Shown here in pieces: positions 14,825 to 30,785 of a stretch of 37,247 nt of DNA. Below the pieces are notes generated by a model. The model was not told the origin of the DNA and did no database searches. It saw nothing but the letters and a program-made list of their open reading frames with translations. This DNA comes from an uncultured Solibacteraceae bacterium (GTDB lineage Bacteria; Acidobacteriota; Terriglobia; Bryobacterales; Bryobacteraceae), in contig CAYZJD010000003.1 of assembly GCA_964478455.1 (NCBI GenBank), forward strand, positions 1-37,247, read 5' to 3'. A program made the translations under genes and the position numbers. Each line of letters begins with the position of its first letter. Position 1 is the first letter of the stretch.

Positions 14825-15700
14825 TCACACGTAGCTAAGCACGAGACCGCGCACGATCAGATACCATCCGTCCACGAGCACGAACAGCAGCAGCTTGAAC
14901 GGCAGCGAGATCACGCTCGGCGACAGCATGCTCATGCCCATCGCCAGCAGAACGTTGGCTACGACCATATCGATGATCACGAACGGCACGAAAACCAGGA
15001 AGCCGATCTGGAAGGCCTCTTTGAGCTCGCTGGTCACAAAGGCCGGAATCAATATCTGGAAGTCGTTCTTGTCGAGCTGGCGCGAGGGCTGGCGGGGCTC
15101 GGAGGGCGCCGGAGGCGCCTGCGCCGCCGCCTGGGCCGCCTGTGCCACGCCAGCGGCTAGCGGCGGGGCCGTCGCCGGCTGCTGTCCCACTTGCGGAGCC
15201 GTTGCGGGCTCCTGTGACGCCGGCGGGGCCGGCCGGCGGTCCAGCCGCGCCGCCAGTTCCATGAACAGAACACGGTCGGTGGCGTGGCTGTGCCGCGACA
15301 GGAATTGCCGCAGAGGCTCCCTGCCCTTCCCGGCCGCGTCGAAGAGGTTTCTTATGCTGCCTTCAGAGAAAATCGATGGACTTGACCCGATGGCGCCCGC
15401 CGCCTGGTACATCTCCCGCGCCACCGGCGTCATGATGAATATCGTCAGGACGAACGCCAGCCCGGTGATGATCTGGTTGGGCGGGACCTGCTGCGTTCCC
15501 AGCGCGTTGCGCAGGATGGAAAGCACCACCGATATCTTGACGAACGACGTCAGCATGATGACCACGAAGGGCGCCAGCCCCAAGGCGCCCAGCACGATCA
15601 CCATCACCACCGGGTTAGTCAGTTGCCCTCCCCCGGATGCCTGCGCCGATGCCGTTCGAGCCAACAGCAGCAAGCCACAGACGGCAAACAAGTTCTTCAT
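14825..15700 (-). CDS. sctR: T3SS export apparatus protein SctR (FliP/YscR family) with N-terminal signal peptide and a low-complexity insertion
   Basis: Conserved LIPAFVTSELKEAFQIGFLVFVPFVIIDMVVANVLLAMGM block. N-terminus MKNLFAVCGLLLLARTASAQA looks like a cleavable signal. A Pro/Ala/Gln-rich insert covers residues about 155-208. Confidence 0.92.
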   Translation of the reverse strand: MKNLFAVCGLLLLARTASAQASGGGQLTNPVVMVIVLGALGLAPFVVIMLTSFVKISVVLSILRNALGTQQVPPNQIITGLAFVLTIFIMTPVAREMYQAAGAIGSSPSIFSEGSIRNLFDAAGKGREPLRQFLSRHSHATDRVLFMELAARLDRRPAPPASQEPATAPQVGQQPATAPPLAAGVAQAAQAAAQAPPAPSEPRQPSRQLDKNDFQILIPAFVTSELKEAFQIGFLVFVPFVIIDMVVANVLLAMGMSMLSPSVISLPFKLLLFVLVDGWYLIVRGLVLSYV

Positions 15701-15713
15701 ATGACTCCCCCGA

Positions 15714-16127
15714 TCAGGTGTCTTTCGAGCGTTTCAGCCCTCTCAGCAGCCGGCTGAAATCCCCCTCCTGCCTGGGTTGCGCGGATTGCTCCTGGAGATA
15801 GGCCTCCAGGCTCTGTGAGTCCAGCCTCGTCAGGTAATGAATGTCACCCTCCGAGGTGCCGACCAGAAAGAAATCGCCGCCGGCTTTGATGATGTAGAGC
15901 GCCTTCCTCGGCTCCAGCGGATAGCGGGCGACCACGCGAATCGGACCACCAGCCAGGCGTTTGAAACCCATCATGCGCGGGATCCAGAACCGCGTCGCCA
16001 CATAGGCCAGAATAAGAATCGCCGCCAGAACCAGCAGCAGCTTGAGATAGTCCAGAATCTGCGTGTTGAGCGCGCCGACCTGCTGGGCCGGGTCCGCGAT
16101 CTGTGACATGAGCAGGATGGTCTTCAC
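15714..16127 (-). CDS. FliO-like single-pass membrane protein
   Basis: 137 aa with one TM helix (LKLLLVLAAILILAYVATRFWI). This is followed by IRVVARYPLEPRKALYIIKAGGDFFLVGTSEGDIHYL, which matches the FliO-family pattern (v..l.Lg.k..l.lv.vg...lLlGvt...i..L). Located between the FliN-like (sctQ) and FliP-like (sctR) genes, as fliO is in flagellar operons. 4-nt overlap with sctQ. Confidence 0.55.
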   Translation of the reverse strand: MKTILLMSQIADPAQQVGALNTQILDYLKLLLVLAAILILAYVATRFWIPRMMGFKRLAGGPIRVVARYPLEPRKALYIIKAGGDFFLVGTSEGDIHYLTRLDSQSLEAYLQEQSAQPRQEGDFSRLLRGLKRSKDT

Positions 16128-17689
16128 GTAACTCTCCAGGAGAGTATCCGGACGCCCAGCCTCCCATCCACATCGACCAGTTCCCCGTCACCCACGATCT
16201 TGCCGTTGATCGCCAGTTGGACCGGGTCCGTCTTCGACCGGTCCAGCTCCAGGATCGTACCGCGCACGAGGCCGTTGGCTTCCGTCAGCGTCAGCTCCTT
16301 CTCGCCCAGCACAACATGGAGGCGGATGGTGAGACGGCTGAAGTCGGGAACCGCTTGCCCGCTCGCCGCCTGCTCGCCCTTGCCGGTATCGTCCATCAAG
16401 ACACTCCTCTCAAAGTAGTTGTCGATCTCCAGAGTCCAAGGGTTGTCCTTCTTCGGCGCTGCCTTCCATCCGCGGCTGAAGTCGCCCGGGAACAGCAGCT
16501 CGCCGTCGGAGGTGAAAAGAAGAATGTCGGAGGGTTCCACCCGCCGCAGTTCGTCCGCGGTCAGTTCCACATAGCCCGTCGATGCCGTGAAGCGGAACGA
16601 AATCGCCGGCGGAAACCGGACTTCGGCGCCGGCGGGCGCCTCTGCCTCCATCGCCGCCAGCAGCTCGTAGGGGAAGTAGAGCCGAAAGGCCTCCGTCAGC
16701 CCGCTCAATTCCATGGAGAACGCCAGCGCGATCCCACGGCTGTCCGGAGCAAACCGTGAGGGCCCAGAGCAGGACGCAAGCGCATACTGGAATGGAAACC
16801 GCAGCCCGCGATTGGCTCTCTCGATCACCGACAGCAAGATGAACTCCAGGAGCCCGTCGTCGGATGGTGTGATGCCCGCTTCCGCTCCCTCGAGTCCGAC
16901 CGGCTGGAGCAGGAGGTTGACGAGCTCCGACAGAAAAGACCGCCGCGCTTCCAGACAAGCCGCCTTCCCGATGGGATGCACCAGCACGAAGTACGCGGCC
17001 GCGCCCGCCGTCGCCGCGCCGCGGAATTCCTCCCAGGCCATCGAGCGGGCCCGCGGAGACGAGACTCGCACTTGCGACTCCGGGATCCACGTCTCCTTGT
17101 ACCTCACCGTGAACGAGTACGGGAACATGGTGAAGCGGTCGCCCGAGCGCAGCACGTGCGGCTGCCGCGCCTGCAATCTCTTCCGGTCCACGTACGTCCC
17201 GAGGGAACTACCGAGGTCTTCCAGCAGGTACTGCCCGTGCTCGAGAAAGATCCGCGCGTGGTTCGTGGCGATCGCCGTCGCCGGCAGAACCAAGTCATTG
17301 TCCGCCCCCCGGCCGATGCGGTACTCCTCCTTCTCAATGACCAGTTCCCGCTCATCCTGTTGAGGCTGAAGGCTGTAAGTCTGCAAGAGCACGAGCTGTC
17401 GCGCCCCCGGACGGGCCAGCAACTCGCCGAAAACCTCCGACACCCACCCTTGCCAGTCCTGATAGCCGGGAAACGAGCGGCAAAACCAGTTCCACAGGCG
17501 GACCTCCTCGCGCGTGTGGGCGGCGAGGCCCTCGAAACGGTAAGGAGGAGGGCCTTTCATGGCGTTGCTATCGGGATCCCTCTCCACGGCGGACGCCGGG
17601 CATCGTTCTCGCGCCCGTGCTTCATCGCCTTCCTTGGCCGCCGCGTCCCTGGCCTCCTCGTTGCTGGCCGCCCCGCTCTTCCCGACCAC
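16124..17689 (-). CDS. sctQ: T3SS cytoplasmic sorting platform protein SctQ (FliN/SpoA C-terminus) carrying an internal FHA domain
   Basis: C-terminal SpoA/FliN domain (LTIRLHVVLGEKELTLTEANGLVRGTILELDRSKTDPVQLAINGKIVGDGELVDVDGRLGVRI). FHA signature at residues about 112-196 (YRIGRGADNDLVLPATAIATNHARIFLEHGQYLLEDLGSSLGTYVDRKRL...GDRFTMFPYSFTV). The start is uncertain: GTG at 17689 overlaps sctP, and ATG at 17560 is the alternative. Confidence 0.85.
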   Translation of the reverse strand: MVGKSGAASNEEARDAAAKEGDEARARERCPASAVERDPDSNAMKGPPPYRFEGLAAHTREEVRLWNWFCRSFPGYQDWQGWVSEVFGELLARPGARQLVLLQTYSLQPQQDERELVIEKEEYRIGRGADNDLVLPATAIATNHARIFLEHGQYLLEDLGSSLGTYVDRKRLQARQPHVLRSGDRFTMFPYSFTVRYKETWIPESQVRVSSPRARSMAWEEFRGAATAGAAAYFVLVHPIGKAACLEARRSFLSELVNLLLQPVGLEGAEAGITPSDDGLLEFILLSVIERANRGLRFPFQYALASCSGPSRFAPDSRGIALAFSMELSGLTEAFRLYFPYELLAAMEAEAPAGAEVRFPPAISFRFTASTGYVELTADELRRVEPSDILLFTSDGELLFPGDFSRGWKAAPKKDNPWTLEIDNYFERSVLMDDTGKGEQAASGQAVPDFSRLTIRLHVVLGEKELTLTEANGLVRGTILELDRSKTDPVQLAINGKIVGDGELVDVDGRLGVRILSWRVT

Positions 17690-18335
17690 GTTCCTGCCGC
17701 GGCGGTTGCGGATCGGACTGCACCTGAACGCTGCCCACTTTCAAACCCCGCATCGTCAGCGCGTGAGCCAGCGTTTCCACGTTCCTGTTCAGGAACTGCG
17801 CCACCTGATCGGACCGCGTGAGGAACTGAACCGAGATCTGGCCCTCGCTCTTTCCGATGTGAATCCGCAAGCCTTCCAGCGTGTGCGACTGAAGCTCGAT
17901 CCGCACTTCGCTCTCGCCCCGCGCGTTGACCGCCACCACTACCTCGCGGACCAGGTCCTGAATCGCCCGGGATTCCAAAAGCCGACTCGGACCCTCCGTC
18001 TTGCGAACCTCCGGTGGAAGCGGCTGTTGCCCCAGGGCGGGCGAAGGCTGCCGCAGGCGTCCCGCTTCTTCCTCGGCCGCAAGACGCGGGCGCTCTTTGT
18101 CGATAGCGCCTTCGAGCAGCTCTGCCTCTCCGGTTCCTTTTTCCTTCTCCTTTTCTTTCGCCTCGCCCGCACCTTCGGCCGTTTCTTTTCCGGAGCCAGT
18201 TTTCAGTTCCTGGCGGGGAGTGGTCTTCTTGGCGAGTACCTTGGCGAATCCGCCCGGCTGCCTGGGCGCGGTCGCCGGTTCATCCTGCCTGGCAGGCACG
18301 GCGGGCTGCGACGGGGGAGTGTCATGCACCTTCAT
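17622..18335 (-). CDS. sctP: SctP / FliK-like length-control and substrate-switch protein
   Basis: 237 aa with a disordered Pro/Glu/Lys-rich N-terminal half. The C-terminal segment EVRIELQSHTLEGLRIHIGKSEGQISVQFLTRSDQVAQFLNRNVETLAHALTMRGLKVGSVQV matches the FliK/YscP C-terminal (T3S4) domain pattern. Canonical position between sctO and sctQ. Confidence 0.65.
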   Translation of the reverse strand: MKVHDTPPSQPAVPARQDEPATAPRQPGGFAKVLAKKTTPRQELKTGSGKETAEGAGEAKEKEKEKGTGEAELLEGAIDKERPRLAAEEEAGRLRQPSPALGQQPLPPEVRKTEGPSRLLESRAIQDLVREVVVAVNARGESEVRIELQSHTLEGLRIHIGKSEGQISVQFLTRSDQVAQFLNRNVETLAHALTMRGLKVGSVQVQSDPQPPRQERGREERGGQQRGGQGRGGQGRR

Positions 18336-18829
18336 GTCGATTGCCTGTTCCGCATGAACAGGATGTTGCCGATCTCATCCTGCTCGAGCGCCTCTTTCCT
18401 TTCGGCCTCCGCGAGAAACCGTCGCTCCAGCTTCGAGCGGTGCTTCGTCAGAATCTCCACCTGCCGCGTACATTCAGCTACCTGTCGCCGGGCGTTCTCC
18501 AGCCGCTCCTCGGCCTCCTCAATGACGATCTTCTGCGAAAAGACCGCATCCCGCGCCGTCTCCACGTCTTGCCCCAAAGCGCGCAGGCGCTCGACGCGCC
18601 GCCGGATCTCGTCTCCCGTCACCGGCCGCTCGCTACCGCCATCGAGCAACGAGCGCCTCAATCCGTCGCGCTGGGCCGCGAGCTGTTCTTCCTTTTTCCT
18701 CAACTCTTCGAGCTTCTGCCTCTCCGCCCGCAACTCCTTCTGGCGCTCGGCAAGCGCCTCCTCGGCTTCCTCCTTCTCGCGGCTCTTCTGATCCAGCAGC
18801 GGCTGGAGGCGGTAACGAAACGTAGCCAC
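18332..18829 (-). CDS. sctO: T3SS stalk protein SctO (FliJ/YscO family)
   Basis: 165-aa coiled-coil protein starting FRYRLQPLLDQKSREKEEAEEAL... like FliJ-family proteins. Positioned right after the ATPase gene. Confidence 0.7.
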   Translation of the reverse strand: MATFRYRLQPLLDQKSREKEEAEEALAERQKELRAERQKLEELRKKEEQLAAQRDGLRRSLLDGGSERPVTGDEIRRRVERLRALGQDVETARDAVFSQKIVIEEAEERLENARRQVAECTRQVEILTKHRSKLERRFLAEAERKEALEQDEIGNILFMRNRQST

Positions 18830-18851
18830 ACTCTCTCCACGCTAGCGCGGC

Positions 18852-20180
18852 TCAATTCATGAACATCTTCTTCAAACCCGCGACCGTGTCCGGGAACCCG
18901 ATCCTTTCGCGCGTTCCCTGCTTCAGAAACGCCGTGATCTCGTCGATCTTCTCAATGGCGTAGTCCACCCGTGCATCGCTCCCCTTCTCGTAAGCGCCGA
19001 GCAGAATCAGGTCCTTCTGCTTTTCGTAAGTGGCCAGCACCTCCCGCATTTTGCCCGCGGCCTTGCGATGCTCGGGGTCGGCCACCGAGCTCATCACGCG
19101 GCTCACGCTATCCAGCGCGCTGATCGCCGGATAGTGGTTCTGCGCCGCCAGGTCGCGCGACAGGATGATATGCCCGTCGAGAATGGAACGCACTTCGTCC
19201 GCGACCGGCTCGTTCATGTCGTCGCCGGCCACCAGCACCGTGTAAAAGGCGGTGATCGACCCCTTGTCCGAGTTGCCCGCCCGCTCGAGCAGCTTCGGCA
19301 GCTCCGCGAACACGGACGGCGTGTAACCGGCGCGCGCCGGCGGCTCCCCGCACGCCAAGCCCACCTCCCGCTGGGCCCGCGCGAACCGCGTCACCGAGTC
19401 CATCATCAGCATGACTTTCTTACCCTGGTCGCGGAAATACTCAGCGATCGCCGTACCGACGTACGCCCCCTTCAGCCGCACCAGCGAGGGCTTGTCGGAA
19501 GTGGCGCACACCACCACCGACCGCTGCATCCCCTCCGGGCCCAGGTCGTGCTCCAGAAAATCCCGCACCTCGCGGCCGCGCTCGCCGATCAGCGTGATCA
19601 CGTTCACCTCAGCCTCGGTGTTTCGCGCGATCATCCCAAGCAGTGTGCTCTTTCCGACACCGGCCGCCGCGAACAGGCCGATCCTCTGCCCCTCCCCGCA
19701 CGTCAGCAGCGAGTCGATGACCCGGATCCCGATCGAGATCGGCTCCGTTACCCGCTTGCGTCGCAGCGGATCCGGCGCATGCCCGTAAACCGGATACTCC
19801 TTATCGCAATGGAGCGGCCCGCGCGTCTCCGTGTCCATCGGTTCGCCGAGCCCGTTGAGCACCCGGCCCAGCAGCCCGTCGCCCACCTTCACCGTCAGGC
19901 AATTGCCCGTCGGCACGACGTCGCTCTGCGGCCCGATGTCCACCAGGTCGCCGAGCGGCATCAGCAGCGCATCGCTGCCCTGAAAGCCGACCACCTCCGC
20001 CTTCACCGGAACGCTCGATCGCGGGTTGTAGATCAAGCACAGCTCGCCGACCCACGCTTCCGGAACCGAGGCCTTCACCAGCAATCCCACCACTTCCTTG
20101 ACCCGGCCCTTCACCTGGACCGGGGCCGCGTGTTCGACCTCTTCCAGATACTTGCCGAGATCGATGACTTTGCTCGCCAT
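18852..20180 (-). CDS. sctN: T3SS ATPase SctN (FliI/YscN family)
   Basis: 442 aa. Walker [16 protein letters not shown] and Walker [14 protein letters not shown], with F1-beta-like organisation. TAATG overlap with sctL. Confidence 0.97.
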
Positions 20181-20809
20181 TACTTTTTAGCCGCTCGCAG
20201 GAGGATCTCCTCCATGCACTTCAACTGCGTCTCCAGTCGCGCATCGATGACTCCCAGGTCGCTCTCCACGATGCACCCGCCCGGAGCCACCGAATCATTC
20301 GCCACAATGTGGATGTCGCGGGAAGACCCCACGACCTCTTCCAGTTTGCCGATGTGGCGCCGCACTTCCTCGAGGTGCGCGGAATTCACCTGGATCGACA
20401 GGGACCGCTCGCGCCGCACACTCCGCAGCGCTTCCCTCACGATGCCGACGATCGTTTCGGGCGCCGACGCAAGCTGCCCGCCAATGATCTTCTCGGCGAT
20501 CCGCACCGCCAGCCGCACCAGTTCCGCCTCGTAATCCTTCTCGAGCTTCGCCGCCGCCTCATGCGCCGAGGCGAGCGCCGCGTTCCACTGGCGCAAGCCT
20601 TCCTCGTAGCCATCCTCTCTGGCTTTGGCCAGGATCGCCTCTCGCTGGCGGCCGGCCTCTTCGAGCACTTCGGCCGCTTGCTGGCGCGCCATCTGCACAA
20701 TGTCCCGCGCCTCCAGCGTGGCCGAGAAGATTTCCTTCTTGACGACCTTCTGCCCGGGTATCGCCGCCGGCTCGGCGGTGGGCTTAGCCTTGATGATCTT
20801 CTCGTCCAT
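20180..20809 (-). CDS. sctL: T3SS stator protein SctL (FliH/YscL family)
   Basis: 209 aa. Charged coiled-coil N-terminal half ([32 protein letters not shown]) and FliH-like C-terminal domain. Immediately upstream of, and overlapping, sctN. Confidence 0.75.
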
Positions 20810-21089
20810 GCGACCCCCGGAGGAACTCGCACGCTGCCCGCCGCAGCCACGGCGGCGCCCCTTCCAGTCCGCCTCCCCAACGATCTCGCGCGGCGCGCCA
20901 AGCCGCCTGCGCCTCCGACTGGCGGAGGCTGCGGAGGCGGTTTTTCCACTCCGCCGGTTCCAGTGCTGCCGCTTCGTCGAGCAATCCGCGAACTACCCTC
21001 TGGCCGGGCTCCGCCAGCAACGCCAGGACCGGCTCCAGCCGCTCCCGACCCTTCAGCAAACCGAGATAGCAGAACGCCGCTTCCCTCAA
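20784..21089 (-). CDS. Hypothetical small protein in the SctK position
   Basis: 101-aa ORF with a 4-nt overlap (ATGA type) with the sctJ stop and a 26-nt overlap with the sctL start. No motif recognised, and shorter than known SctK proteins. Confidence 0.35.
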   Translation of the reverse strand: MREAAFCYLGLLKGRERLEPVLALLAEPGQRVVRGLLDEAAALEPAEWKNRLRSLRQSEAQAAWRAARDRWGGGLEGAPPWLRRAACEFLRGSHGREDHQG

Positions 21090-21907
21090 CGCCGCCCGGC
21101 TCCTTCCGCCACGCTTTCGGCCGGCAACTGGCGCCGCTGCGCCATTGTCGTCAGCTCGTTTTCAAGCCGCCCCACTTTCGCGCGCAGCCGGTTGGCCCGC
21201 AAGGCCAGGCCAATACATCCGAGCCCTGCGATCACGGCCAGCGCCAGCGACACGACGGTGACTTCCTGGTTGCCGAGATACCAGGAGACATCGCGCGGCG
21301 GCACCGTCTTCGGCTCGATCTTCTTGTACACCACCGCCACGTTCTCCGGCTGCAAGCCTTCCACTCCCCGGGCCACAAGACTCCTGATCTCTTCCTCTTT
21401 GAGCGGAAGCTGGCTGCCCTGGTACTTCACCAGCACCGACGCCGTGGTGGGCTTTCTGTCCTCCCGGTCCATCAGCGGGCTGTTCTCCGGCAGCACCACG
21501 TGTACCCGCGCGTCCACCACGCCCGCCACCGACTTCAGGGTCCGGCTGATTTCTCCGGACAGCCCGACGATCAGCCGCGCCTTCTCCTCACCCGCCGTCG
21601 GGATCATCCCGCCGCCGGGGAAGGCTTCCGATAGTCCCTTAACCTTCTCGCGCGGCAATCCGTTCTCCTGAAGGATCCGCCAGGCCAGCACCAGGTTCTG
21701 ATCGCCTCCTTTTACTTTCACCGTCCACAGCGGGCCTTCTTTCTGCTCGCCGCCCACTTCCCGCTCGCGCGCGGCATCCAGCCCGTGCTCCTTGAGCAGA
21801 ACGATGATCTCCTGTGCCTCCTGCTCGCTCAGGCCCGTTTGGAGCTCCTGCTTCAGACAGCCCGTCAGCACCGCCAGGATCAGCACCACCCATAAGCACT
21901 TGCGCAT
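21086..21907 (-). CDS. sctJ: T3SS inner-membrane ring lipoprotein SctJ (YscJ/PrgK family)
   Basis: Start trimmed to the ATG at 21905-21907, preceded by GGGAGAGGAG. Signal peptide and lipobox MRKCLWVVLILAVLTGC. YscJ-like LSEQEAQEIIVLLKEHGLDA, plus a C-terminal TM helix (VTVVSLALAVIAGLGCIGLAL). Confidence 0.88.
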   Translation of the reverse strand: MRKCLWVVLILAVLTGCLKQELQTGLSEQEAQEIIVLLKEHGLDAAREREVGGEQKEGPLWTVKVKGGDQNLVLAWRILQENGLPREKVKGLSEAFPGGGMIPTAGEEKARLIVGLSGEISRTLKSVAGVVDARVHVVLPENSPLMDREDRKPTTASVLVKYQGSQLPLKEEEIRSLVARGVEGLQPENVAVVYKKIEPKTVPPRDVSWYLGNQEVTVVSLALAVIAGLGCIGLALRANRLRAKVGRLENELTTMAQRRQLPAESVAEGAGRR

Positions 21908-21978
21908 GTTCTCCTCTCCCGATGAGGACGCCGGGCCCGGCTCTTCCGACACATCCGAAACCGGCCCGCGCGAGGCAC

Positions 21979-22527
21979 TTATACCTGCGTCTGTAGAATG
22001 GATTTAATTCCGGAATTGACCTGCTCCACCACCTTGCTCACCAACTCGATGTTCTGTGTCATCTGGTAAATCTGCATCTGTACTTTCAGTAAGTCGCGAG
22101 GGTTGTTCGTTCCGGCGAGACCGTTGACTAATTCTCCCGTCGCCTTGAAGTTCGCCTCGATGGTGTTCAGCCGCTGCCGGATCGGATCGAACGCCGATGA
22201 CTTCGGGAGGGCATTCACCTGGCGGGTCAGCCCGTCCATCCTCACCTGCGTGCGCTTCATGTCCACCTTGAACACTTCTCGCGGCGACCGCGAGCGCCCC
22301 GCCTGCATCCGTCTCCGCAGATCGCTTTCCAGGACCCGCGTCTGCTGGGCGGAAACTTGCGTGACCTGCGGAGGGAGATTGTAGGGCACGTTCAGACGGT
22401 CGTCCTGAAGGTTGCTCCGGATCTGGTCGAACTTTGACGGCCCCCCCTTCTCCGTCGCGGCCGTCCCGAAGTCCTGCTTCGGGGTGATCGCCCTCACAGC
22501 GCCTTTGCTGATGATCGGATCCGCCAT
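21979..22527 (-). CDS. sctI: SctI-like inner rod protein (YscI/PrgJ family), enlarged
   Basis: 182 aa. The C-terminus DLLKVQMQIYQMTQNIELVSKVVEQVNSGIKSILQTQV aligns by eye with the YscI C-terminus as I recall it (DLMLMQWSLIRITIQEELIAKTAGRMSQNVETL). Sits directly upstream of sctJ, as in ysc/psc loci. Confidence 0.6.
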   Translation of the reverse strand: MADPIISKGAVRAITPKQDFGTAATEKGGPSKFDQIRSNLQDDRLNVPYNLPPQVTQVSAQQTRVLESDLRRRMQAGRSRSPREVFKVDMKRTQVRMDGLTRQVNALPKSSAFDPIRQRLNTIEANFKATGELVNGLAGTNNPRDLLKVQMQIYQMTQNIELVSKVVEQVNSGIKSILQTQV

Positions 22528-22635
22528 ACTCCCCTGCCTGGGCTATACTAGCGCCCGCTCCCGCGGGCGTCCGGCGTCGTCATTCCTGGCCGGCGCTGGC
22601 CGCACAACTGTCCCCCGGCTAGCGGTCGTCTCCAA

Positions 22636-22662
22636 TTATCGGCCCACCCGGAGCAAAGTTTC
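22636..22662 (-). promoter_or_regulatory. Sigma-28 (FliA)-type promoter reading into sctI
   Basis: Minus strand reads GAAACTTT-N11-GCCGATAA against the enterobacterial consensus TAAAGTTT-N11-GCCGATAA. The -10 element matches 8/8 and the extended -35 matches 6/8, with exact spacing. The -10 overlaps the last codons and the TAA stop of the FliA-like gene. The sctI ATG lies about 100 nt downstream. Confidence 0.6.
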
Positions 22663-30248: not shown

Positions 30249-30549
30249 AGTACGGCTCCGCAGTCTCCAGGATTGCCTTGCGCCGAATCCAATTCGAGCT
30301 CCGCTCAATGGCTCGCCGCGAAACGAGGTCCACTTTTCTAGCCAGGATGCTTGACAGCTCCTCCTCCATCGCGACGTGATCGAGCAGGCTCCAGTCTGCG
30401 TCCGGGGCGAAGCTGACCAGCAGGTCCACATCGCTGTCCGGGCGAAAATCATCGCGCAGGGCAGACCCGAACACGCGGAGTTCGACGATCTTCCACCGGC
30501 GGCAGAACTCATCGAGCCGCTCTGTAGGAATGGGAATCTTTTGGCGCAC
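30235..30549 (-). CDS. mntA: MntA-like nucleotidyltransferase antitoxin
   Basis: 104 aa with the minimal nucleotidyltransferase motif VFGSALRDDFRPDSDVDLLVSF. Overlaps the downstream HEPN gene, the typical arrangement for this pair. Confidence 0.8.
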   Translation of the reverse strand: MRQKIPIPTERLDEFCRRWKIVELRVFGSALRDDFRPDSDVDLLVSFAPDADWSLLDHVAMEEELSSILARKVDLVSRRAIERSSNWIRRKAILETAEPYFVSR

Positions 30550-30707
30550 TGTGCCGCCGCCCTAACGGCAGGATACCAAGGCAGACAGCACCGTAGGAAG
30601 TACTCCGGTGGCCAAGGGTGGGCACAAATCTGAACACCCTGGCGAAGGGTCGGCCGATGTCCACACGCCATCAACCGCCGTAAGCTAGTGAGTGCTTGCA
30701 GGATAAC

Positions 30708-30785
30708 TGGTCGGGGCGAGTGGATTCGAACCACCGACCTCCTGGTCCCGAACCAGGCGCTCTAGCCAGGCTGAGCCACGCCCCG
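30708..30785 (-). tRNA. tRNA-Pro (anticodon CGG), CCA encoded
   Basis: Minus strand reads CGGGGCG-UG-GCUC-AGCCUGGCUA-GAGC-G-CCUGG-UUCGGGA-CCAGG-AGGUC-GGUGG-UUCGAAU-CCACU-CGCCCCG-A-CCA. The cloverleaf folds cleanly and the anticodon loop is UU-CGG-GA. Confidence 0.93.

Follow-up and report, generated by a model that had tools for sequence, protein, structure and literature searches.

A FliA-like sigma factor gene and predicted sigma-28-type promoters at a non-flagellar type III secretion cluster of Acidobacteriota

Genes of the locus

The window (the whole stretch of DNA analysed here, 37,247 nucleotides long) holds a gene for a FliA-like sigma factor and, 3' of it and on the same strand, a T3SS (type III secretion system) cluster that runs from 22527 to about 2108. 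The genes concerned are the following, in the direction of their transcription.

23494..26019, minus strand: Ser/Thr kinase with an FGE-sulfatase domain (Pfam)
22636..23358, minus strand: FliA-like sigma factor of 240 aa, group 3, sigma-28 family (Pfam Sigma70_r2 and r4)
21979..22527, minus strand: SctI/SctF-like protein of the rod or needle family, 182 aa, N-terminus MADPI, first gene of the sct operon (PF17001 with 32.1 bits; PF09392)
13705..21952, minus strand: rest of block 1, namely sctJ, a 101-aa ORF, sctL, sctN, sctO, sctP/FliK-like, FHA-sctQ, fliO, sctR, sctS and sctT (Pfam, NCBIfam)
10785..13622, minus strand: block 2, namely a LysM protein gene, sctU, orf140 and a TPR protein gene
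6747..10696, minus strand: block 3, namely three ORFs of unknown function (223, 207 and 155 aa) and sctV

The genes of block 1 are tightly packed, and past block 3 the cluster continues to about 2108 with a TPR gene, an FHA gene and, at its distal end (2108-4489, minus strand), three tandem paralogues that each carry a DUF4384 domain. SctV reached 781.5 bits with TIGR01399 (cut-off 692.25), the FlhA model TIGR01398 staying under its own cut-off, and SctJ reached 166.5 with TIGR02544 (cut-off 161.95). Together with the presence of SctN, L, O, Q, R, S, T and U by Pfam, these scores identify the export apparatus of a non-flagellar T3SS. The cluster also encodes a FliO (15714-16127, minus strand), an SctP-like protein that is FliK/HpaP-like (Flg_hook; 17622-18335, minus strand) and the LysM protein (12780-13622, minus strand). 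A secretin domain, as expected for the outer-membrane secretin SctC, was found on no window ORF scanned.

Several further features of the region deserve mention. The conserved ORF of about 100 aa between sctJ and sctL (20784-21089, minus strand) occurs in every related locus examined; it has no similarity in Pfam or PDB and, apart from being FlgM-sized, nothing ties it to FlgM. The SctQ protein (16124-17689, minus strand) carries an N-terminal FHA domain, and the second FHA protein of the cluster is encoded at 4532-5125 (minus strand). The Ser/Thr kinase gene adjoins the sigma gene in most acidobacterial loci, and relatives add PP2C phosphatases (kinase region at 4463-9851 of locus L085). This setting of kinase, FHA and PP2C proteins suggests a control of the T3SS by threonine phosphorylation, as in some T6SSs. 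Elsewhere in the window, the 5' extension of the ORF 29910-30734 (minus strand) runs over a tRNA-Pro (CGG) gene at 30708-30785 (minus strand). Residues 173-267 of the ORF product form a HepT-like ribonuclease domain, and the actual start of this HepT gene lies probably further inside the ORF.

For the sigma factor, the best NCBIfam match is TIGR02479 (FliA_WhiG) and the best PDB matches are all FliA chains (9wsm, 6pmi and 1rp3), but the TIGR02479 score of 131.7 bits is below the curated cut-off of 189.6. We therefore name the protein FliA-like and treat it as a distinct subfamily, with a specificity that is extrapolated from FliA. Two of its segments are almost invariant across all 80 loci compared below, other phyla included: the 2.3/2.4 segment FKTFAYYRI(R/K)GA(I/V)YD and the 4.2 helix GLSKSWxxRxHA(K/R).

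The element at the 3' end of the sigma gene

The element that ends the sigma gene, here called P1, and the features predicted around it are given below.

22636..22662, minus strand: P1, predicted sigma-28-type promoter, GAAACTTT-N11-GCCGATAA
22655-22662, minus strand: -35 of P1
22636-22643, minus strand: -10 of P1
22628..22630, minus strand: predicted start of transcription from P1, about 8 nt past the last A of the -10
22528..22627, minus strand: 5' leader of about 100 nt from P1 to the ATG of the SctI-like gene, with the Shine-Dalgarno GGGGAG 5 nt before the ATG

A sequence-only reading had proposed at this place a sigma-28-type promoter, set in the FliA-like gene and aimed at the non-flagellar T3SS, and the details it gave agree with a direct reading of the DNA. 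From 22662 to 22636 the minus strand reads GAAACTTT GCTCCGGGTGG GCCGATAA; the -10 is identical to the FliA consensus, with its essential CGA core, the spacer is of exactly 11 nt, and the -35 fits TAAAGTTT at 6 of 8 positions. The same reading had the element double as codons of the sigma gene, and the translation bears this out, the stretch encoding Q-E-T-L-L-R-V-G-R-stop, that is, the last nine sigma codons and the TAA stop (22636-22638) at the C-terminal end of the ORF 22636..23358. P1 is the sole match in the window to TAAAGTTT-N11-GCCGATAA when up to 3 mismatches are allowed, for 0.03 expected from dinucleotide shuffles. A weight matrix of 29 nt, built from related loci only with the window left out, gave P1 a score of 21.7 bits and found 2 matches of at least 17 bits in the window against 0.047 expected.

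The conservation of the element was followed in 80 genomic loci around sigma homologues, 55 of them acidobacterial, the closest relatives being Bryobacteraceae, Solibacteraceae and Terriglobia MAGs of Acidobacteriota. The sigma gene adjoins sct genes in 77 of the 80 loci, in Acidobacteriota as well as in other phyla. The pattern [AC]AAC-N15-17-CGA[TC]AA is present directly 5' of the sctI-like gene in 54 of the 55 acidobacterial loci, with 0.0014 matches expected per 160-nt window, and the single acidobacterial locus without it (L027) is also without an adjacent T3SS. PF09392 also matches homologues of the SctI-like protein, whose gene comes next after the motif in nearly all loci. The motif consists of the last sigma codons and the TAA stop in 33 loci and lies within the end of the sigma ORF in 3 others; it is intergenic in 10 loci because the sigma gene stops earlier there (26-50 nt before it), and in 8 loci, where the sigma gene is inverted, it occupies the divergent intergenic region and faces sctI. 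Since the motif is non-coding in some loci or stands beside an inverted sigma gene, the element tracks the start of the sct operon as DNA and not the peptide of the sigma factor.

The codon choice of the sigma gene is skewed to fit the motif (CGA, TAA and GCA). In an alignment of 30 sigma homologues the C-terminal tail is variable, yet it ends in x-(E/A)-T-(F/L)-x4-R-stop. Of 40 terminal Arg codons, 33 are CGA, compared with 9% CGA among internal Arg codons, and the sigma stop is TAA in 36 of 55 loci compared with 6 of 25 window genes. The Ala codon GCA has A as its third base in 97%, and the third base of the next Thr codon is free, precisely at the N of the motif. At the DNA level, an alignment of eight loci has no invariant columns 5' of the ATG other than AAC, CGATAA and a single isolated C. 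As its consensus the family has G-C-A-A-C-N-T-T, 11 nt (sometimes 12), y-c-C-G-A-T-A-A; the sequence of the spacer is unconserved and the two blocks are not mutually complementary. Most family members share with P1 the spacer of 11 nt, and some, including the sites P2 and P3 described below, have 12 nt. As to the -35, defined in FliA promoters as TAAA(GTTT), the family block GCAAC-N-TT shares only AA and TT with TAAAGTTT.

On the distant-phylum loci L056-L080 a loose regular expression was noisy (20 matches versus 8.2 expected), and distant clades were judged only by clear GAAACTTT-N13-GACGATAA sites. Such sites are found in a clade of UBA10199 and 'Deltaproteobacteria' MAGs, with a sigma identity of 40-42%, at 56-73 nt past the sigma stop, and in most of those loci they precede an sctI-like gene of the MxDP type. 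A homologous sigma gene is also carried by the Myxococcota MAG loci L062 and L075. This environmental T3SS is widespread, being found in Acidobacteriota, Myxococcota-like, UBA10199, Nitrospirota and other MAGs.

The predicted start of transcription follows the fliC promoter of P. aeruginosa, in which the -10 is numbered -15 GCCGATAA -8 (PMC12784957). The window is atypical in the distance that P1 keeps from the ATG (108 nt); the DNA alignment places about 95 extra nt between P1 and the ATG in the window and in L081, a 95%-identical relative, only. A terminator or attenuator in this 108-nt leader was considered and rejected, as the leader contains no terminator-like site, folds no better than shuffles (z-score -0.72) and matches no Rfam family. 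Most relatives have just 9-12 nt from the end of the -10 to the sctI-like ATG, whatever the arrangement of the genes (e.g., 6692-6715 in L006 and 5829-5870, minus strand, in L044). With a start 8 nt after the -10, such a gap would leave in most relatives a leader of 2-5 nt without Shine-Dalgarno, which is unusual and would need translation of the leaderless type.

Additional copies and the proposed circuit

Two more copies of the element lie within the T3SS cluster.

13650-13677, minus strand: P2, GCAACCTT-N12-CGCGATAA, intergenic between sctT and the LysM gene
10767-10794, minus strand: P3, GCAACTCT-N12-CCCGATAA

The strict family pattern G[AC]AAC-N-[ACT]T-N12-14-CGATAA has three matches in the window, P1, P2 and P3, for 0.006 expected, and all three are on the T3SS-coding strand, at 108, 27 and 70 nt 5' of start codons, respectively. 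P2 precedes the ATG at 13622, with the Shine-Dalgarno GGAGGG, and is also found by the weight matrix with 17.8 bits (site given as 13650-13678). P3 precedes the ATG at 10696, which has the strong Shine-Dalgarno AAAGGAGG; the fixed-spacing matrix missed it, its spacer being 1 nt longer, and a regular expression of variable spacing was needed. As its -35 shares bases with the TGA stop of the TPR gene, P3 provides a second promoter-coding overlap in the window. Both sites have counterparts at equivalent places in independent loci. Sites similar to P2 follow sctT in L084, L085 and L092 and are absent in L086, L088 and others, sites similar to P3 follow the TPR gene in L089, L093, L094, L095, L097 and L103, and one copy stands immediately after sctU in a more distant clade, so that neither P2 nor P3 is universal among the lineages. 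In L085 and in L028/L034/L041 a copy stands ahead of the kinase gene as well.

These copies modify the earlier proposal that P1 drives an sct operon of about 18 kb. P1 is indeed aimed at the cluster, which spans 18-20 kb, but it is not its sole predicted promoter, P2 and P3 heading the downstream blocks; the additional copies ahead of gene blocks therefore point to a small regulon with several promoters in place of a single 18-kb operon. No terminator-like sites were found in the gaps between the cluster genes, and read-through from one block to the next would still be possible.

Copies were also noted at other places. A looser one, CAACCCTT...CGACAA, is located at 16419-16445 (minus strand) inside the FHA-sctQ gene (16124-17689), about 25 nt 5' of an internal Shine-Dalgarno with the sequence GAGAGGAG, read in the gene as codons E-R-S, and of an in-frame ATG. 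Translation from this ATG would give SctQ-C, a C-terminal piece of SctQ of about 91 aa. L103 and L093 have the same arrangement, there with CGATAA, and L092 does not. The copy in the window could serve SctQ-C as an internal promoter or could be due to chance, the loose pattern being expected 0.4 times per window. Strong copies also face away from the sigma gene, toward uncharacterised genes, in L056, L058 and L059 (about 5752-5780, minus strand) and in L087 (4707-4734, minus strand), where the copy stands ahead of an operon for proteins of 197, 192, 307 and 784 aa, the 784-aa protein carrying He_PIG repeats. The genes behind the copies in these four loci are candidate members of the regulon or candidate secreted substrates.

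We infer the promoter activity, the start site, the identity of the sigma factor that reads the sites and the control of its activity from sequence comparison, and the circuit would operate as follows. The sigma gene would be transcribed from an upstream promoter of another type, because the window has no copy of the motif ahead of it (the matrix score next in rank, 8.0 bits, belongs to a site on the opposite strand); an autoregulation of the sigma gene through the motif was rejected for the same reason. A sigma-70-like site, TTGAAA-17-CACAAT, was found by consensus scan at 23474..23502 (minus strand), about 115 nt 5' of the sigma ATG, but one such site against 1.1 expected makes it weak evidence for the promoter of the sigma gene. 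Once active, the sigma factor would direct the RNA polymerase to at least three sites of the T3SS cluster, with P1 (22636-22662) serving sctI through sctT, P2 (13650-13677) the LysM gene, sctU and the TPR gene, and P3 (10767-10794) the three unknown ORFs and sctV, so that the three together would switch on the whole apparatus. As no terminator lies between the sigma gene and sctI, read-through from the sigma gene probably gives a basal level that P1 would amplify. The sigma factor itself could perhaps be controlled by the neighbouring Ser/Thr kinase and FHA proteins, or by an anti-sigma factor. The search for a FlgM-like anti-sigma gene that the sequence-only reading had recommended yielded none among the scanned window ORFs: FlgM (PF04316) had no match, up to an E-value of 5, on eight cluster ORFs that are small or unknown or on two further ORFs, unannotated, from beyond the cluster; a profile of the ORF of about 100 aa between sctJ and sctL, run against the PDB, returned no FlgM, and neither method gave anything relevant.

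The residues of the sigma factor that would contact the promoter were compared with those of the P. aeruginosa sigma-28 open complex (PMC12784957) through the alignment to chain 9wsm. The residues by which P. aeruginosa FliA reads the -10 (D66, Y76, R80, R82, D87 and R104; PMC12784957) are kept as D56, Y/F66, R70, R72 (R or K), D77 and R94. At the position of R97, which reads the extended -10 GC in P. aeruginosa (PMC12784957), the sigma factor has K87, and the two bases before CGATAA are weakly conserved in the family. The invariant R207 stands in place of Q228, whose base-specific contact is with the upstream edge of the -35 (PMC12784957), and the -35 of the family is GCAAC versus TAAAG. This pattern of residues, with CGATAA kept, the -35 changed and the extended -10 weak, is consistent with a dedicated pair of sigma factor and promoter.

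These comparisons make it likely that P1 functions as a promoter of the sigma-28 class and is recognised by the FliA-like sigma factor encoded by the gene that it overlaps, and we consider it probable that this sigma factor is dedicated to the T3SS and has at least three cognate promoters. In another reading the sites would be true sigma-28-type promoters read mainly by a separate flagellar FliA encoded elsewhere, the adjacent sigma factor having another specificity. The -10 identical to the canonical FliA -10 and the 6/8 fit of the window -35 to TAAAGTTT agree with it, as do the conservation of FliA specificity across phyla (bioRxiv 10.1101/188474) and the flagella reported in Acidobacteria (PMC3459982), and T3SS expression would then be coupled to the flagellar hierarchy. 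We nevertheless judge it unlikely, since motif and T3SS-linked sigma gene are found together in 54 of 55 loci, and also across phyla, and since the family -35, GCAAC and not TAAAG, is paired with the invariant Q-to-R change at the sigma residue that contacts the -35.

Still less probable is that the two blocks are no promoter and form the binding site of another regulator, or an RNA-level signal for the translation of the sctI-like gene. The main argument for it is the near-leaderless mRNA without Shine-Dalgarno that a promoter start would give where, as in most lineages, the distance from motif to ATG is nearly fixed (9-12 nt). This distance is however not obligatory, as P1, P2, P3 and the sites of the kinase gene lie 17-108 nt from their ATGs, which corresponds to ordinary leaders. 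An 8-mer, a spacer of 11-12 nt and a second 8-mer with the CGATAA core is moreover the architecture of a sigma-28 promoter, and further points against this reading are the lack of complementarity between the blocks, the unconserved spacer and a window leader that folds no better than its shuffles. Finally, a match due to chance, or to selection on the C-terminal peptide (…ETLxxxxR) and not on the DNA, is highly improbable and the peptide-level explanation was rejected: the tail does recur in the protein alignment, but the same motif persists in intergenic DNA and beyond the inverted sigma gene (10 and 8 loci), synonymous positions are fixed to it, and the chance expectations are of 0.0014 to 0.03.

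Comparison with known systems and significance

The preferred reading, a FliA-like sigma factor acting on its own T3SS promoters, can be set against several known systems. The class 3 promoters of FliA in E. coli, Salmonella and Pseudomonas (TAAAGTTT-N11-GCCGATAA) have the same two blocks, the same spacing and CGATAA, and the sigma factor described here aligns best to FliA and retains its -10-reading residues. In contrast to FliA and its class 3 promoters, the target is a non-flagellar T3SS and not the flagellar late genes, the family -35 is GCAAC-N-TT with a weakly conserved extended -10 GC, the sigma factor is below the FliA/WhiG threshold with a distinct invariant 4.2 helix GLSKSWxxRxHAK, and no FlgM was found among the scanned window ORFs. 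The pair of sigma factor and promoter may, as a tentative view, be a relic of the flagellar class 3 circuit, kept as the non-flagellar T3SS split off, in which an assembly checkpoint would persist (through an anti-sigma factor that the completed apparatus would export, or a gating by Ser/Thr kinase and FHA proteins), near-leaderless sctI transcripts included.

Known sigma factors dedicated to T3SSs are HrpL of Pseudomonas syringae and Erwinia and BtrS of Bordetella, both of the ECF type, the latter with the secreted anti-sigma factor BtrA. As in these systems, the sigma gene is located in or near the T3SS cluster and several T3SS operons would be served through a common promoter motif; HrpL and BtrS belong however to group 4 (ECF) and read unrelated motifs (hrp box), whereas the sigma factor of the window is of group 3, FliA-like, with a sigma-28-type motif. 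The sigma-28 of Chlamydia is another FliA-family sigma factor in a non-flagellate bacterium with a T3SS. Unlike what is proposed for the cluster-linked sigma factor, its targets exclude the genes of the T3SS apparatus, only hctB and tsp being found by ChIP-seq (PMC12282069).

Mechanistically, the arrangement comes nearest to the motA promoter that lies within flhC in E. coli and other proteobacteria. This FliA promoter is conserved, constrains two flhC codons and, where the overlap with flhC is lost, is replaced by an intergenic copy of the motA promoter (Fitzgerald et al., bioRxiv 10.1101/188474). In both cases a FliA-type promoter, predicted here, lies in the 3' part of an upstream regulator gene, drives the next operon and constrains codons; the differences are that the overlapped gene is here that of the sigma factor itself, stop codon included, and that the operon is that of a T3SS. 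FliO in non-flagellar T3SSs has been described for Myxococcota (PMC12403147), and the cluster resembles the 'Myxo' needle-less T3SS* of Myxococcus xanthus in keeping FliO and a FliK-like protein with no secretin detected in the locus (PMC12403147; PMC10849154). In the literature searched we found no report of a linked sigma factor or promoter motif for the T3SS* of M. xanthus. The survey of Abby and Rocha contains no non-flagellar T3SS in Acidobacteria (PMC3459982). Within our partial coverage of the literature, no published report was found of a T3SS in Acidobacteriota or of a FliA-like sigma factor dedicated to a non-flagellar T3SS, and the module of sigma factor, promoter and T3SS is conserved and apparently undescribed so far.

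Injectisome-type T3SSs are thought to have descended from the flagellum, and the T3SS master regulators known to us (AraC-type activators and the ECF sigma factors HrpL and BtrS) are unrelated to flagellar regulation. With a FliA-like sigma factor and sigma-28-type promoters at a T3SS that keeps FliO and a FliK-like protein, both machines would be linked in their regulation and not just in their structure. P1 would also be, after flhC/motA, a second clear case of a promoter that constrains an overlapped coding sequence, the constraint extending here into the stop codon of the very sigma gene whose product is presumed to read the promoter. Many soil and sediment lineages share the arrangement, and GCAAC-N-TT-N11/12-CGATAA offers a simple rule to predict the regulon of an uncultured group, which could include candidate secreted substrates.
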